NCBI GenBank assembly: GCA_963715985.1
Contig: CAVQSP010000011.1
Coordinates: 448,001-512,000 of the forward strand
Direction of reading: 5' to 3'
DNA length: 64,000 nt
From: an uncultured Thermoleophilia bacterium
Lineage (GTDB): Bacteria; Actinomycetota; Thermoleophilia; UBA2241
The position numbers and the translations under genes were made by a program. Shown piece after piece: positions 50,969 to 55,788 of this stretch; the first letter of the stretch is position 1; the number at the start of each line of letters is the position of its first letter. The notes beneath the pieces were generated by a model. That model worked only from the letters and a program-made list of their open reading frames with translations. It was not told where the DNA came from and did not search any database.

Positions 50969-51988
50969 ATGGAAGGCGCAACGTCTGTCATCTACATCGA
51001 GTCCAACCGTATGAGCCAGCGAAAGCAGACGGTCATCGACCTGTTGAGAGGCAGCCAGGACTTCGTCTCCGGCGAGGCCATGAGCGCCCAGCTCGGCATC
51101 TCGCGCAACGCGATCCACAAGCACGTCAAGTCACTGCGCCGGCGCGGCTACCGCATCCTCGGCGTCTCGCGCCGCGGCTACCGCCTGGATGAGGAGCCGA
51201 GCCGCCTCTCCATGGGCCACGTCACCGACCGCACCGCCGGAAGCGCGTTCGGCCGCTCCTACCGGTACTACGACGAGATCGAGTCGACCAACGCGGAGGC
51301 CAAAGCGCTGGCGAACAGCGGCGCCCCCGAAGGCACCGTGGTGATCGCCGAGGCGCAGACCGCAGGGCGTGGGCGCCTCGGGCGTCGCTGGACCTCGCCG
51401 GCCGGCAAAGGGCTGCTCTTCTCCGCCCTTCTGCGCCCCGCGCTGCCCATGGGCGATGCACACATGTTGACGTTGGTGGCGGCCTGCGCCGCCGCCGAGG
51501 CGATAGAGTCGCTGGCCGAGGTGCCGGTGCGCATCAAGTGGCCGAACGACCTCTTCATCGGCGACCGCAAGGTCGGCGGCATCCTGCTCGAGGTCGCCGG
51601 CGAACAAGACGAAGTCGACTGGATCGTGGTCGGCATCGGCGTGAACGTGAACACCGAGTACTCGGAGCTCCCGGTCGCGCTGCGGCGCACGGCGACGTCG
51701 CTCAAGATGGCCACGGGCGAACCCGTTGACCGCAGCGAGCTGCTCGCCAAGCTGCTGCTGACACTCGATGCCCACTACGCGCGTGCGCTCGCCGACGGTT
51801 TTGAGAGCGCAGTCAGCGTCTTCCGCAGCCGAGACTACCTGCTCGAGAGGACGGTCAGTGTGCAGACCCGCGATGGTGCGGTGGTCGGCCAGGCGAGCGG
51901 CATCGACGAACGAGGGGCGCTGCTGGTCGAGCTGCCCCAGAGGAGGATGCGGACCTTCCACTCCGGCGACGTCACGCTGGCCCCGTGA
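50969..51988 (+). CDS. birA: Bifunctional biotin ligase/repressor with N-terminal winged HTH
   Basis: FVSGEAMSAQLGISRNAIHKHVKSLR HTH; STN; QTAGRGRLGRRW; KWPND; KVGGIL; GIGVN. Confidence 0.95.
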   Translation: MEGATSVIYIESNRMSQRKQTVIDLLRGSQDFVSGEAMSAQLGISRNAIHKHVKSLRRRGYRILGVSRRGYRLDEEPSRLSMGHVTDRTAGSAFGRSYRYYDEIESTNAEAKALANSGAPEGTVVIAEAQTAGRGRLGRRWTSPAGKGLLFSALLRPALPMGDAHMLTLVAACAAAEAIESLAEVPVRIKWPNDLFIGDRKVGGILLEVAGEQDEVDWIVVGIGVNVNTEYSELPVALRRTATSLKMATGEPVDRSELLAKLLLTLDAHYARALADGFESAVSVFRSRDYLLERTVSVQTRDGAVVGQASGIDERGALLVELPQRRMRTFHSGDVTLAP

Positions 51989-52104: not shown

Positions 52105-52656
52105 CTGTCCTCGCTCACCGCTCGCGAGATCGCCTACTCAGCCCTGTTCACGGCGCTCATCGCCGGCGGCTCCTTTGTGGCGATCCCTTTGGGCCCAGTG
52201 CCCTTCACGCTGCAGGTCATGTTCGTGCTCCTGGCCGGACTTGTCCTGGGGTCTCGGCTTGGGGCCCTGAGCGTGATCGCCTACCTTGCGCTGGGCCTCG
52301 TCGCGCCCGTCTACGCAGGTGGCACGTCCGGGGCAGGCGTACTCTTCGGCCCCACGGGCGGCTACCTGTGGGGGTTCGTCGCTGCAGCGGCGCTCGCGGG
52401 TCTCGCGGCCCGTGGGAGCGATGATCCTGATCTGGGGCGCTTCGTGCTCGCCGGGCTGGCGGGTCTGGTGCCCATCTACGTGCTGGGAGCGGCGTGGCTC
52501 GCGCTCCAGCTCCACCTGGACCCGGCCGCGGCCATAGCTGCCGGCGTGGCGCCGTTCGTGTGGGGGGACGTGTTCAAGGCGCTCGCAGCCGCGCTGGCGG
52601 CGCGGAGCATGGTCAACCTGCCGCTGGGTCTTCCTTCGCCTCAGAGAGACCGCTGA
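52105..52656 (+). CDS. bioY: Biotin ECF S-component BioY (likely CTG start at 52105)
   Basis: PLGPVPFTLQ; YLALGLVAPVYAGG; GPTGGYLWGF; PFVWGDVFK. The frame extends upstream of the ORF call (LTAREIAYSALFTALIA) to a CTG preceded by GAGG. Confidence 0.92.
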   Translation: MSSLTAREIAYSALFTALIAGGSFVAIPLGPVPFTLQVMFVLLAGLVLGSRLGALSVIAYLALGLVAPVYAGGTSGAGVLFGPTGGYLWGFVAAAALAGLAARGSDDPDLGRFVLAGLAGLVPIYVLGAAWLALQLHLDPAAAIAAGVAPFVWGDVFKALAAALAARSMVNLPLGLPSPQRDR

Positions 52657-54047
52657 CGTCGGCCAGAGCGTGGCCGCGCAGCCGCAGGTTGATGCGCCCT
52701 CGCTCGTACTCGACCATGAAGTCCGTGGAGCTGCCGTCGCGGTAGGCGAGGTCCTTGTCGCGCAGCACGCGGGCGAGCGCCTCCACGTGGTCCTTCTCGA
52801 GCGTGCGCCCCGACATCATGCGCAACTCCTTGAGCGCCTCGAAAGAACTCCTCGCCGAGTGGTAGGGCCGGTCCGACGTCATGGCGTGATACGAGTCGGC
52901 CACGGCGAGGATCTTGCTCAACTCCGGAATGGAATCGCCCGAGATCCCGCTCGGGTAGCCGCTGCCGTCGAGTCGCTCGTGGTGATAGCGGACGATGTCG
53001 GCCACATCCTGATAGGCGACGAGGTGTGAGAGGACCTCGGCGCCCTTCTCGGGATGCTCGCGGATGCACGCCCAGTCCTGATCATCCAGCACGGTGGTCT
53101 TGCGCAGCACGGCGTCGGGCACTCCCACCTTGCCGAGATCGTGCAGCAGACCCGCCAGATGCAGGGCCTCCGATTCCTCCTCGGGCAGCTGCAGGGCGCC
53201 GGCGATGTCGCGACAGTACATGGCCACCGCCGCAGAGTGCTGCGCGGTGTACTCGTCCTTGCTGTCGAGCAGCACCACCATGGCCGCTGCCAGCCCGATG
53301 TTCATCTCGAGGTACTGGTCGCTGAGCTCCTTCTGCTTGGTCAGGTGCTGCTTCTCGCGGACCAGCAGCTTGAACATGTACTGGCTTGCGAAGAGAGGAA
53401 TGAAGAGGAGCGTGACCGCCACGATGCCCGCCTCCGCGTACAGCGCCGCGATGGCCAGCCCGAGCAGCAGGAGGACTCCGAGAGAGCGCAGGAATGGCGG
53501 CATTTCTTCGCGCCAGAAAGAGCCTAGATGCCGCCTGCGTATTTGACTCGCATCCCGAAGCTCACGAGCAAGAGATTGGCAGCCTCAAACGCGACTGCCG
53601 CCGCAGCGCCCGCGCACAGGAGGCCTACTGAGAGCTCGAAGGTGGAGACATCAAGCGCCGCGGTTACGCGGCCTCGAAGACCATCGTCGCGAGAAACACA
53701 GATAAGACCGTGTTTGCGGCATTGAAGGCGACAACGGCGCGCGAATCCTCCCGCCAGGCGCCCCAAAGGCCCATGATCAGGGCTATGGCGAGGGCCGGCA
53801 GCCGACCCGTGTACATGATGGCCAGCAGCAATGGGAGGTTCCCGGCCGCAAGCGTGACGCGATCCGAGACCTCCACCGACATCTCGTCGGCGATCACTGC
53901 CAGCACAGCGAAGACCACAGCATCGCGGAGTACCGTAGTGGACAGCGGAATGGGACCCGGCCAGTTAACGCAGAAGAGCGCGGCTAGCCCGGCACCGGCG
54001 GCCAGGCCCGCGGCGAACACGCGGAAGTTGCGCTCAGCTATGGACAC
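52613..54047 (-). CDS. Multi-TM membrane sensor fused to an HD-GYP cyclic-dinucleotide phosphodiesterase; two apparent frameshifts (~53667 and ~53538)
   Basis: LLHDLGK, HHERLDGSGYP and ILAVADSYHAMTSDRPY are intact. The hydrophobic N-terminus runs across ORFs 53664..54047, 53524..53766 and 52613..53503; RBS GAGGTG. Confidence 0.88.
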
Positions 54048-54077
54048 GACACCTCACCCGGGTGTGCAGTGCCGAGT

Positions 54078-54105
54078 GTATCGGCACGACCCGGGAAGAG
54101 CTTGA
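54078..54105 (-). promoter_or_regulatory. sigma28-like promoter upstream of the HD-GYP gene, overlapping a stem-loop
   Basis: TCAA-N16-GCCGATAC on the minus strand; stem CCCGGGT..GTGCCGA/TCGGCAC..ACCCGGG. Confidence 0.5.
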
Positions 54106-54108
54106 GCG

Positions 54109-54189
54109 CTAATGGATCTTGCTGCTGCCGCCAGAAGCGACGAGCGCCAGGAGCAGCGAGGCAAGCGTGCGTTCGATCTTCTTGCTCAT
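54109..54189 (-). CDS. 26-aa small peptide with signal-peptide-like architecture (not in the ORF track)
   Basis: MSKKIERTLASLLLALVASGGSSKIH*; RBS AAGGACGGAG 6 nt before the ATG; directly upstream of and co-oriented with the HD-GYP gene. Confidence 0.7.
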   Translation of the reverse strand: MSKKIERTLASLLLALVASGGSSKIH

Positions 54190-54283
54190 GATGGACTCCG
54201 TCCTTGCCTGGCGCGTCAGTGAAGCTTGGCGTAGGTCGAGTGAGATGGAGTTTGGCGTAGGAAGCGAGCATAAGAATCCCTCC

Positions 54284-54310
54284 TAAAGGTCCGGCAACAA
54301 CTGCCGATAA
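54284..54310 (+). promoter_or_regulatory. Consensus sigma28 (FliA/SigD/WhiG) promoter
   Basis: Exact TAAA-N15-GCCGATAA (TAAAGGTCCGGCAACAACTGCCGATAA). Confidence 0.7.
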
Positions 54311-54510
54311 CAAATGGTTGACGACTCCGTGGCCGCACTCTGGCAGGCTCGTCGCTCCCCGCGCATGCATCCGCGTATGGACATTCCTGGCAAATCGGCG
54401 GTTGACGATTGCCAGAATGGACAACACTTTGTAGGCTCGCGGCGCGCCGTCGCGGCGAAGCTACACCGCACGCGCTCGGGCGCGCCGCCGACGCGCGGGT
54501 CCACGCCCGC

Positions 54511-55788
54511 GTGATGCGGCGGCCAGTGTCACGCCGAGCGACGACGAAGGGGGTCGTAATAGAGGCACACGGCATCACCGCAGCCGAGGCGCCGTCGGTC
54601 TCACTGGCCCGCAACGGCAACTTCCTGTTGCTGTGGACGGGCCAGTTCATCTCCCAGCTGGGCGACCGCCTGGCCATGGTCGCCCTGCCGTGGCTGGTCT
54701 ACACGAGCACCGGGTCCGCGCTGAGCACGGGGCTCGTCTTCGCTCTCTACACGCTCCCGTACGTGCTCTTCGGCGCCTTCGCCGGCGTGCTCATCGACCG
54801 CTTCGACAAGCGCCTTGTGATGATCGCCTCGGACGTCGCTCGCACGGGGCTGGTGATACTCGTGCCGCTGGCCGCCACGTGGTCTCTCCCCGCGGTGTAC
54901 GTGCTCAGCTTCCTCATCGCCAGCGCCGCGGTCTTCTTCGACCCGTGCAAGCTCGCCATCCTCCCCGACCTGGTGAGCCGCGACCGCCTGCTGCGCGCCA
55001 ACTCCCTGCTGGCCACGGGGGAGAACCTCACGGAGATCGTGGGCTACACCCTCGCCGGCTTCACGCTCGCCACCATCTCCACCACCAGCGCGTTCCGCAT
55101 CGACGCCGCGACGTTCGCCGTGTCCGCGGTGTCTCTGGCCCTCATCCGCTACCGCGCGCCGGCGCGCGAGGCGGCGCAGAAGATGGCGGGCTCGTTCCGG
55201 CGCGAGCTCCGCGAGGGACTCGACTTCCTCGTGCACCACCGCGGGCTTCGCACGAACACGATCATGGTCATCGGCTGCGTAGCGGGTCTTGGCGCCGCGT
55301 ACCCACTCACGTTCCTCTTCGCGGTGAACGTGCTGGACGCCGGCACAGGAGCCTTCGGCGTCTTCGAAGCCGTCATCGGTCTCGGGTACCTGATCGGCTC
55401 GCTGGCCCTGGCGACGCTGGCCACCCGTATCCCCAAAGGCCGCGCGATGACGATCGGGCTGGTCGTCATGGGCGCGAGCCTGGCCCTGGTGGCCGCGGCG
55501 GGCGGCGTGGTCGTGGCCTGCATCCCCTTCGCCGTCCTCGGCCTGGCCAACGCCGCGGCGCTCATCGCCATCGACACGTACCTGCAGGACGTCGTGCCCG
55601 AGCAGCTGCGTGGCCGCGTGTTCGGCACGCGCTTCACGCTGACCCAGGGCGTGTACGCACTGTCGGTCCTGCTCGGAGGCGCACTCGCGACCGTGGTGGA
55701 CGTGCGCATCCTCTTCATCGTCTGCGGCCTCCTGATCGCCCTGCCCGCGCTCGCGGGCCTGTTCGTGCGCGACATCCGGGAAGCCTGA
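54511..55788 (+). CDS. MFS transporter (DHA3/macrolide-efflux-like); start uncertain
   Basis: NFLLLWTGQFISQLGD; AGVLIDRFDKRLVMIASD motif A; ~12 TM; VPEQLRGRVFG. Confidence 0.9.
   Translation: MMRRPVSRRATTKGVVIEAHGITAAEAPSVSLARNGNFLLLWTGQFISQLGDRLAMVALPWLVYTSTGSALSTGLVFALYTLPYVLFGAFAGVLIDRFDKRLVMIASDVARTGLVILVPLAATWSLPAVYVLSFLIASAAVFFDPCKLAILPDLVSRDRLLRANSLLATGENLTEIVGYTLAGFTLATISTTSAFRIDAATFAVSAVSLALIRYRAPAREAAQKMAGSFRRELREGLDFLVHHRGLRTNTIMVIGCVAGLGAAYPLTFLFAVNVLDAGTGAFGVFEAVIGLGYLIGSLALATLATRIPKGRAMTIGLVVMGASLALVAAAGGVVVACIPFAVLGLANAAALIAIDTYLQDVVPEQLRGRVFGTRFTLTQGVYALSVLLGGALATVVDVRILFIVCGLLIALPALAGLFVRDIREA

Follow-up and report, generated by a model that had tools for sequence, protein, structure and literature searches.

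A conserved 26-codon gene ahead of a predicted membrane HD-GYP phosphodiesterase gene in uncultured Thermoleophilia

In a 64,000-nucleotide (nt) stretch of DNA from an uncultured Thermoleophilia bacterium (hereafter the window; positions 448,001 to 512,000 of GenBank contig CAVQSP010000011.1), a 26-codon open reading frame (ORF) precedes, on the same strand, a gene for a membrane protein with an HD-GYP domain. This ORF, mini-ORF 2, is a real, selected, single-copy coding gene paired with the HD-GYP enzyme gene, and it is confined to one family of uncultured soil and wetland Actinomycetota. Its peptide probably either partners the enzyme or controls the synthesis of the enzyme. The reading preferred here, tentatively, is that the peptide would be a membrane micro-protein partner of the MASE9-type sensor domain of the enzyme, translated from a structured leader with a possible further role in gating the synthesis of the enzyme; the partner role and the cis-regulatory role are compatible. 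An earlier reading of the window by a model, made from the letters alone (the sequence-only reading), had flagged mini-ORF 2. Standard annotation names neither this ORF nor a second one upstream of it, mini-ORF 1 (public gene calls were looked up for mini-ORF 2). The three genes on which the argument turns are as follows.

54109..54189, reverse strand: mini-ORF 2, the flagged gene, ATG start, 26 codons
54216..54271, reverse strand: mini-ORF 1, upstream of mini-ORF 2, recognized from orthologues and from contigs of independent runs
52613..54047, reverse strand: predicted membrane HD-GYP phosphodiesterase gene, GTG start, MASE9-like over codons 1 to about 240 and HD-GYP over codons about 250 to 440

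The flagged gene and the enzyme behind it

The sequence-only reading had described an ORF at 54189-54109 with a good ribosome-binding site about 60 bp upstream of a co-oriented gene, and the description holds in each of its parts. The ribosome site GGAG (54199-54196) stands 6 nt 5′ of the ATG, the stop codon is TAG (54111-54109), and the spacer from this stop to the GTG of the enzyme gene measures 61 nt. A DNA search among 40 relatives returned orthologous loci at 70-82% DNA identity, with most full-length matches starting a few bases from the start of mini-ORF 2. A wider search brought the orthologous loci, which come from metagenome-assembled genomes of uncultured Thermoleophilia (Actinomycetota), to 57, and 51 of these have at least 520 nt of upstream DNA. 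The scan of homologues for a conserved upstream small ORF, as proposed in the sequence-only reading, found mini-ORF 2 in 51/51 of the latter loci, uninterrupted in 49 and with one frame change in the other two. The peptide is kept in 18/18 same-genus loci examined, and it persists although the identity of the enzyme falls to 47-65%. In the 26-codon class (22 unique DNAs), the variable columns at the first, second, and third codon positions number 5/3/19 of 25 each, and pairwise codon differences comprise 1281 synonymous and 333 non-synonymous changes. Since mini-ORF 2 is present in all 51 loci and shows a substitution pattern of the coding type, it lies far beyond chance. The probability that the frame is open merely by chance, within a leader conserved for non-coding reasons, is practically negligible: although the region also holds conserved RNA or DNA motifs, and four loci have the middle DNA repeat of their mini-ORF 1 in another frame, variation gathers at third codon positions, the peptide is kept down to the enzyme identities just given, and the codons of its tail change while the residues stay.

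A profile of the peptide matches mini-ORF 2 once in the window's genome (E 3.6e-14, next match 0.08), and no paralogue was found there with this profile. The gene is occasionally predicted in JGI/IMG records, on up to 65 contigs, either unnamed or as "hypothetical protein." A 514-residue member of one cluster of mini-ORF 2 peptides was rejected as an unrelated protein drawn in by a clustering artefact.

The peptide consists of a basic N-terminus, a hydrophobic helix with the motif S-x-x-x-A, GG, and the tail S-S-K-I-H. Its consensus reads M-(S)-K-K-I-E-x-x-L-A-S-L-L-x-A-L-V-x-S-G-G-S-S-K-x-H, in which M1, G21, and H26 are invariant and L9, S11, A15, G20, and K24 are at least 90% conserved. The S-x-x-x-A motif is formed by S11 and A15 and is a signature of the helix-packing type. 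The hydrophobic, glycine-rich stretch covers about 15-19 residues, with one basic residue at each end.

The enzyme gene starts at GTG 54047, behind the ribosome site GAGG (54055-54052). Its C-terminal 296 codons match HD_5 (PF13487) with E 8.1e-40 and 136.8 bits against a cut-off of 27.2, and the H-D and HHERLDGSGYP motifs are intact, with these residues invariant in 28 orthologues. By this profile and these motifs, the enzyme is a predicted cyclic di-GMP (c-di-GMP) phosphodiesterase. An AlphaFold model of an orthologue, built from a 28-sequence alignment (mean predicted local distance difference test score 71, about 75-93 over most of residues 1-240), has a helical membrane part before the HD-GYP domain, with the topology inferred. 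Profile and model together agree with the claim of the sequence-only reading that an intact HD-GYP domain follows a membrane part. Among the long modelled helices (2-28, 37-55, 103-131, 140-169, 173-205, and 207-260) lie two short ones, 70-79 and 82-98, and this pair fits the published description of MASE9. With the Pfam profile of MASE9 (PF20972), the orthologue in locus L009 scores 20.4 bits (E 5.4e-4), which is under the gathering score of 24.3, and the orthologue in L027 gives no match.

The window's genome (G000) holds six further HD-GYP matches, none with mini-ORFs: three within about 10 kb on C13 (~106-118 kb), one at ~149 kb on C13, and one each on C14 and C21. A paralogous MASE9 fused to a SpoIIE/PP2C phosphatase (G000 C20:248570-249199) is likewise without mini-ORFs.

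As assembled, the enzyme gene runs through three frames (54047-53664, 53766-53524, and 53503-52613), and the sequence-only reading had accordingly reported two frameshifts. These are present in the assembly but absent from independent wetland short-read contigs (runs X1 and X2), which are 2 nt shorter at both 53664 and 53537 and carry a compensating +1/-1 pair at 53636 and 53644. Once both 2-nt differences are applied, the reading frame that begins at GTG 54047 runs without a stop through 476 codons and so equals intact orthologues in length. Because the independent contigs without the breaks give this 476-codon frame, the breaks look like assembly errors or, less likely, strain variants, and the enzyme gene is most likely intact in nature. 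The enzyme genes of several relatives are also split, at other places, as are neighbouring genes in some of those assemblies. Between 53489 and 53906, the contigs of two runs differ by 10 substitutions and 6 gap letters in about 415 nt, while the contigs that flank this interval, from the same runs, are identical to the window; it looks like a local assembly patch of poor consensus.

A second mini-ORF with a matching tail, and the leader

Three things escaped the sequence-only reading: mini-ORF 1 with the same tail, the conserved RNA leader, and the evidence against the frameshifts. Of the ribosome sites in the leader, that of mini-ORF 1 is the strongest: AGGAGGG (54284-54278), 6 nt 5′ of the start. 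In the window it consists of two 9-codon units, each ending Y-A-K-L-H, and between the two units each of the three K-L-H codons has a different third base. In the assembly, the second unit falls out of frame. Three independent runs (X2, X4, and the RNA-library run X18) have an extra base behind 54237, with which mini-ORF 1 is one 18-codon ORF with the stop TGA at 54218-54216. In relatives, the shortest versions follow the pattern M-R/I/T-x-x-x-K/R-hydrophobic-H-stop over 8-9 codons; frequently the ORF has grown to 2-4 units in tandem, which all have the same three-residue end and whose length varies by lineage (5, 6, 8, or 9 residues). A strict script found mini-ORF 1 with a clean ribosome site and start in 43/49 loci; in the remaining 6, its pieces are broken by single-base differences. 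Conservation in mini-ORF 1 is limited to the last three residues.

Both mini-ORFs end Lys/Arg-Met/Ile/Leu/Val-His-stop, and the residue two positions before His is K or R in 43/43 loci. The codons of the tail vary while its residues are kept (AAG ATG CAC, AAA GTC CAC, AGG CTC CAC, CGC ATG CAC), and all three types of stop codon occur. The tails of the two mini-ORFs are identical in 27/39 unique pairs against a shuffle mean of 12.1, with 0/10000 shuffles as high, a statistic that is overstated because related genomes are not independent. In eight of these 27 pairs, the codons behind the identical tails differ. Once the large K-M-H group is set aside, the tails match in 8/20 pairs, and one locus has R-L-H in both. 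Of 2318 short ORFs in the window's genome that have a ribosome site, 3 end in the Lys/Arg-hydrophobic-His-stop pattern, where permuted patterns give 0-1; none of the three is a leader ORF, and no other leader ORF with this end was found in that genome.

Around the two mini-ORFs, alignments of the related loci bring out further conserved elements.

54302..54323, reverse strand: 5′ leader motif, CGTCAACC (54323-54316) followed by TATCGGCA (54309-54302), from alignments
54100..54106, reverse strand: post-stop motif CTCAAGC, just 3′ of the mini-ORF 2 stop, from alignments
54057..54095, reverse strand: nested hairpin with conserved TGCCGATA (54086-54079), directly before the enzyme ribosome site
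54337..54342, reverse strand: promoter -10-like hexamer CAGAGT (TAGAGT, TAGCAT, or TACCAT in relatives), from alignments
54409..54424, no strand: inverted repeat TTGTCCA-nnn-TGGCAA in the divergent promoter region between a major facilitator superfamily (MFS) transporter gene and the mini-ORF operon, from 18 aligned same-genus loci

Across 46 sequences, the motifs CGTCAACC and ATCGGCA show no or almost no variation, GTCAAC occurs upstream in 48/49 loci, and the -10-like hexamer sits about 13-20 nt 5′ of the conserved leader motif. The inverted repeat may be an operator that co-regulates both transcription units. The stem-loop that the sequence-only reading had placed between the two genes was recovered as a nested hairpin, with inner arms GTGCCGA (54087-54081) and TCGGCAC (54075-54069) and outer arms CCCGGG (54095-54090 and 54062-54057). 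It folds at -38.3 kcal/mol with a z-score of -3.49, and 0/200 shuffles fold as well. The TGCCGATA(GAC) motif is kept in 24/24 diverse spacers, and the spacer folds have z-scores of -2.5 to -3.5 in 5/12 loci.

The TATCGGCA ahead of mini-ORF 1 and the TGCCGATA behind mini-ORF 2 are exact reverse complements, and a long-range helix could therefore bracket both mini-ORFs. In a longest-helix test, the bracketing helix measures 8-12 bp within the family (median 9 bp) and is not significant locus by locus, with 9/48 loci matched by at most 5/100 shuffles. In a duplex-energy test of the same pairing, which is non-discriminating in GC-rich DNA, 9/48 loci score better than every one of 20 controls. When 18 near relatives are folded to a consensus, GUGCC of the spacer pairs with GGUAC/GGUGC between the enzyme ribosome site and start, and the post-stop AAGCUC with enzyme codons 5-6; compensatory changes in this fold number 0. 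RNAalifold gave only 3 trivial pairs for the 5′ motif region (46 sequences) and no pairs for the spacer (24 sequences). Rfam returned no family in the leader and no c-di-GMP-I or c-di-GMP-II match at E ≤ 10 in 53900-54500.

In the metatranscriptome X18, a 176-nt contig that spans both mini-ORFs is identical to 54106-54280 except for the extra base, and a second contig lies within the enzyme gene (52808-52958). Contigs of this kind do not tell where a transcript ends, which strand it comes from, or how abundant it is, and stretches of the region without cover in X18 have no significance. As such libraries may also contain DNA, the two contigs attest presence in the library and give only a hint of expression.

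Distribution, distant relatives, and neighbourhood

Among 401 genomes of the class, the peptide profile matches 61/79 genomes of the window's family, with one copy of mini-ORF 2 per matched genome except in one fragmented assembly; the genomes without a match include incomplete ones (64-98% complete). In other families, there are only 11 matches, with E 0.0026-0.01 and inside long ORFs, which are read as chance. A profile of the membrane domain finds the enzyme in 72/79 genomes of the window's family and in 14/24 of the sister family f6, a tally that takes in one unpublished genome (G350), to which none of the results is tied. Four f6 loci (L129, L130, L132, and L135) share a conserved stretch about 110 nt before the enzyme start, with in-frame G-C-Y-N-A/T-T-T..., which could be a leader of another kind or an N-terminal extension.

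The membrane-domain profile (401 genomes) also finds 19 distant homologues in other Actinomycetota classes, of which 17 are HD-GYP proteins and 2 are MASE9-histidine kinases. Six of the 17 lie above the Pfam MASE9 cut-off and six more score below it; MASE9 scores are 48.3 bits in L158, 49.6 in L160, 36.2 in L163, 29.1 in L157, and 27.4 in L145. An ORF of 24-29 codons stands directly upstream in 7/19 loci by each of two filters (8 in their union), in the format M-K/R, hydrophobic helix, GG, and short tail with a basic residue. The enzymes that bear such a micro-ORF are 7 of the 10 enzymes of at most 505 residues. Their tails are quite different from those of the window's family, and there is no second peptide. 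In 5/7 of these loci, a 12-20 bp helix joins a segment 109-144 nt before the micro-ORF to one 4-13 nt after its stop. The helix sequences differ between loci, 4 are matched by at most 1/200 shuffles, and one includes ATCGGCA, the core also found in the window's family. Rfam returned no family in the leaders of the distant loci, and no c-di-GMP riboswitch match at E ≤ 1 in seven of these loci.

Five of the distant loci (L145, L152, L154, L157, and L158) share the motif GAGCGGAGCG ... CTAGCGG between the 5′ helix arm and the micro-ORF, for which there is no Rfam family. This leader may be an undescribed structured class that belongs to short-form MASE9-HD-GYP genes. The only strong Rfam hit at the distant loci is an unrelated raiA RNA (RF03072, 169.6 bits) at L156:3354-3562, in another Actinomycetota genome, where it occupies the 3′ flank of a long-form MASE9-HD-GYP gene on the opposite strand.

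The genes next to the module in the window are the following, of which BioY and BirA belong to the neighbourhood and stand outside the module.

54409..55788, forward strand: MFS transporter (Pfam MFS_1 and MFS_3), divergent, syntenic in 51/57 related loci
52177..52656, forward strand: BioY gene, convergent, in 53/57 loci
50969..51988: BirA gene, upstream of BioY, in 53/57 loci

The real start of the MFS gene is probably about 40-60 codons inside the listed ORF. The BioY ORF, as listed, shares its last 44 nt (52613-52656) with the 3′ end of the HD-GYP gene. The 22 neighbouring ORFs scanned include MFS, BioY, BirA, LuxR-type, AAA_22, and menaquinone genes, and the nearby radical-SAM genes are menaquinone (futalosine-pathway) enzymes. 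No AgrB-like, site-2-protease, peptidase-ABC, or RRNPP/Rgg/Rap-like gene was found in the neighbourhood, nor, within about 10 kb, any peptide-maturation or export gene besides the MFS transporter, and no P450 or other maturase lies within 10 kb.

The readings weighed, and comparison with known systems

Under the partner reading, mini-ORF 2 would be the Thermoleophilia form of a micro-protein of about 25 residues that precedes short-form MASE9-HD-GYP genes. To judge from the basic residues that flank its hydrophobic stretch, the peptide would insert in the membrane, where it would pack against the MASE9-type domain as a subunit or modulator, and this packing would set the signalling of the membrane domain to the cytoplasmic c-di-GMP hydrolase. 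The common three-residue tail would be the part read by a shared partner. As a secondary and non-exclusive role, translation of the mini-ORFs would remodel the RNA pairings over the enzyme start site, so that peptide and enzyme would be made in a set ratio. The partner role is favoured because the peptide is conserved over its whole length with an S-x-x-x-A helix, because the pair of micro-ORF and enzyme recurs at large distances in otherwise different surroundings, because the two tails match lineage by lineage, and because the divergence of the peptide follows that of the membrane domain and not that of the catalytic domain. Over 28 loci, peptide divergence correlates with the membrane domain at r = 0.875 and with the catalytic domain at r = 0.733 (partial r of 0.71 and 0.14, respectively), a comparison confounded by common ancestry and unequal rates. 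The sequence-only reading had proposed that the peptide is a ligand or a membrane subunit, and it is the subunit half of this proposal that fits the comparative data, including the distant micro-ORFs.

Several observations weigh against the partner reading. The hydrophobic stretch, taken as about 15-16 residues, is short for a membrane span, and both the matching of the tails and the distance correlation are inflated by common ancestry. Binding of the micro-protein to the sensor domain is putative, and a cis role would account at least as well for the conserved leader RNA and for the strength of the ribosome site ahead of mini-ORF 1. The peptide profile of the window's family does not reach the distant micro-ORFs (E ≥ 13), whose kinship is therefore judged by format and position only. 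In f6, no small ORF with such an ending and no leader motif was found in 12/12 fetched loci, and the enzyme can therefore do without the mini-ORF. A complete genome of the window's own family (G007; locus L139, C4:204900-206500) has two copies of mini-ORF 1, both ending K-L-R, with no recognizable mini-ORF 2 and no GTCAAC motif; it could be a natural variant that shows which part is dispensable.

Because the RNA leader is conserved, a cis-regulatory role is a serious rival. In its pure form, which is unlikely though not to be taken lightly, both mini-ORFs are cis-acting leaders whose peptides have no function of their own, and ribosomes, perhaps pausing at Lys-hydrophobic-His-stop, would open the pairings that mask the enzyme ribosome site and its weak GTG/TTG start. 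Such a role would suit the strong ribosome site of mini-ORF 1 and the restriction of its conservation to the last three residues, the conserved non-coding motifs of the leader, the exact complementarity of TATCGGCA and TGCCGATA, and the consensus pairings of GUGCC near the enzyme start and of AAGCUC with codons 5-6. The spacer z-scores in 5/12 loci and the 12-20 bp helices of 5/7 distant loci point the same way, the latter standing at the same positions, with a 3′ arm within reach of the terminating ribosome. However, mini-ORF 2 is conserved over its whole length, with a membrane-helix character that a leader acting in the ribosomal tunnel does not need, and a 26-residue chain would still be in the ribosome at termination, so that its hydrophobic part presumably cannot act co-translationally. 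Within lineages, the middle residue of the tail co-varies between both ORFs, a constraint that would not come from a ribosomal target, and each of the three stop codons occurs. No base pair of the family leader has a compensatory double change, the long-range match of 8-12 bp lacks significance when loci are tested one at a time (9/48), and the tail ending marks no other leader ORF in the genome (3/2318, none a leader).

An exported pheromone, the main proposal of the sequence-only reading, is improbable. Here, mini-ORF 2 would be a precursor of the Phr/SHP type that releases its tail or C-terminal fragment outside the cell, perhaps together with a mini-ORF 1 peptide exported by the neighbouring MFS transporter, and the membrane domain would sense the released peptide as a signal between cells. 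The layout of mini-ORF 2 does resemble a signal peptide (basic N-region, core of 10-12 residues, S/G-G-G, and a tail of 4-5 residues), the tail is common to both peptides, the tail units have expanded independently in at least 5 lineages in a manner that resembles multi-copy peptide precursors, and the divergent MFS_3-type transporter is syntenic in 51/57 loci. The Agr/SHP/Phr-type architecture suggested by the sequence-only reading nevertheless finds no counterpart in the neighbourhood, which has none of the AgrB-like, site-2-protease, peptidase-ABC, or RRNPP genes and only the divergent MFS gene as a transporter. Specific positions of the core are conserved, whereas signal peptides usually keep only hydrophobicity, and the junctions of the tandem units have no common cleavage context, as His is followed by I, L, S, H, or T. 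Moreover, the distant relatives retain the micro-ORF, yet their tails differ and the second peptide is absent. A role of the peptides as modified or metal-binding precursors, or as cargo or partner of the MFS transporter, with linkage to the enzyme as a matter of operon economy, is very improbable. Tiny ORFs that end in x-His are known as natural-product precursors in Actinomycetota, and the MFS gene is a constant neighbour, but the 10 kb around hold neither a P450 nor a maturase, the radical-SAM genes are menaquinone enzymes, the residue two before His is Lys or Arg rather than aromatic, and the MASE9-HD-GYP pairing recurs in distant classes with other neighbours. A bolder version of the partner reading, itself improbable, treats the two peptides as a matched pair, in which a membrane-anchored tethered ligand would offer its Lys-hydrophobic-His tail to the MASE9-HD-GYP enzyme and would face a soluble competitor for that site, from mini-ORF 1 with 1-4 tails, and the ratio of the products, set by the structured leader, would tune c-di-GMP degradation.

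The input signals of most membrane-bound c-di-GMP enzymes, including the whole MASE9 class, remain to be identified according to the accessible parts of two sources (bioRxiv 10.1101/2021.11.05.467447; PMC13232838). The conserved micro-protein gene is a concrete candidate for the missing partner of MASE9. If the peptide binds the sensor, second-messenger turnover would be added to the processes under the control of bacterial micro-proteins, and if it acts only in cis, a new leader-peptide motif would be at hand. If the matched-pair reading were true, it would amount to encoded agonist/decoy control of a second-messenger enzyme, which is undescribed so far.

No description of a module of mini-ORF and HD-GYP gene was found in the full-text literature, a coverage that leaves out most subscription journals. 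The closest relative of the enzyme itself is the MASE9-HD-GYP group (Thermotoga maritima TM1467 type and HdgA), which, as far as the accessible text goes, has the same architecture of membrane sensor and HD-GYP domain, though the proteins of the window's family score under the MASE9 cut-off (20.4 vs. 24.3 bits). In the text available, MASE9 is described as an integral-membrane sensor with a pair of short helices and is argued to bind a ligand within the membrane (Galperin and Chou, bioRxiv 10.1101/2021.11.05.467447). HdgA of Streptomyces venezuelae, the only MASE9 member that has been studied, is described, in the portion available, as poorly expressed and without a deletion phenotype (PLoS Genet 2026, PMC13232838). 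The accessible parts of these papers (10.1101/2021.11.05.467447; PMC13232838) mention no associated micro-protein or leader ORF. The nearest paper found deals with unrelated proteins: in Clostridioides difficile, 58-residue membrane-associated proteins stand under c-di-GMP riboswitches, according to the part of the report at hand (Nat Commun 2026, PMC13724677). Like the peptides here, they appear there as small, previously unannotated, membrane-associated, and wired into c-di-GMP signalling; they differ in that they form a four-helix bundle, are unrelated in size, are regulated by riboswitches, and are not paired with an HD-GYP gene.

Biarylitide precursors typically end in His. The accessible text describes them as five-residue precursors from 18-bp genes in Actinomycetota (PMC13417212; PMC12002111) and, in this respect, they are like the mini-ORFs, minimal ribosomal peptides of Actinomycetota that evade annotation. 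They need an adjacent cytochrome P450 and an aromatic residue two before the end, and neither is present here (22 ORFs; K/R in 43/43). Exported pheromone precursors are represented by Phr, SHP, and AgrD. In size class and layout, they resemble mini-ORF 2: behind a basic N-terminus come a hydrophobic core and, at the C-terminus, a short functional part. In contrast, the locus here has no dedicated processing or export genes and no RRNPP or histidine-kinase receptor, and the hydrophobic core of mini-ORF 2 is conserved at specific positions.

Control of a masked start by leader ORFs is known from ermC, the cat/cmlA leaders, tnaC, and the mgt leader ORFs. Those systems likewise have short ORFs with good ribosome sites in the 5′ leader, predicted pairings over the downstream ribosome site, and conserved residues nearest the stop codon. 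Here, however, two ORFs share their three-residue end and one of the two encodes a conserved hydrophobic peptide, the structure is without covariation in the family, and no ligand or stall is known. Small membrane modulators include MgrB and SafA, which act with PhoQ, KdpF with KdpABC, and AcrZ with AcrB. Like the predicted peptide of mini-ORF 2, they have fewer than 50 residues and one hydrophobic helix and are encoded beside their membrane partner or in its regulon, and helix packing in the membrane, proposed for them, would by analogy be the mode of action of mini-ORF 2. Unlike them, the peptide here is shorter, its putative target is a c-di-GMP phosphodiesterase rather than a kinase or a pump, and mini-ORF 2 lies inside the enzyme's own structured leader, beside a soluble twin with the same tail.

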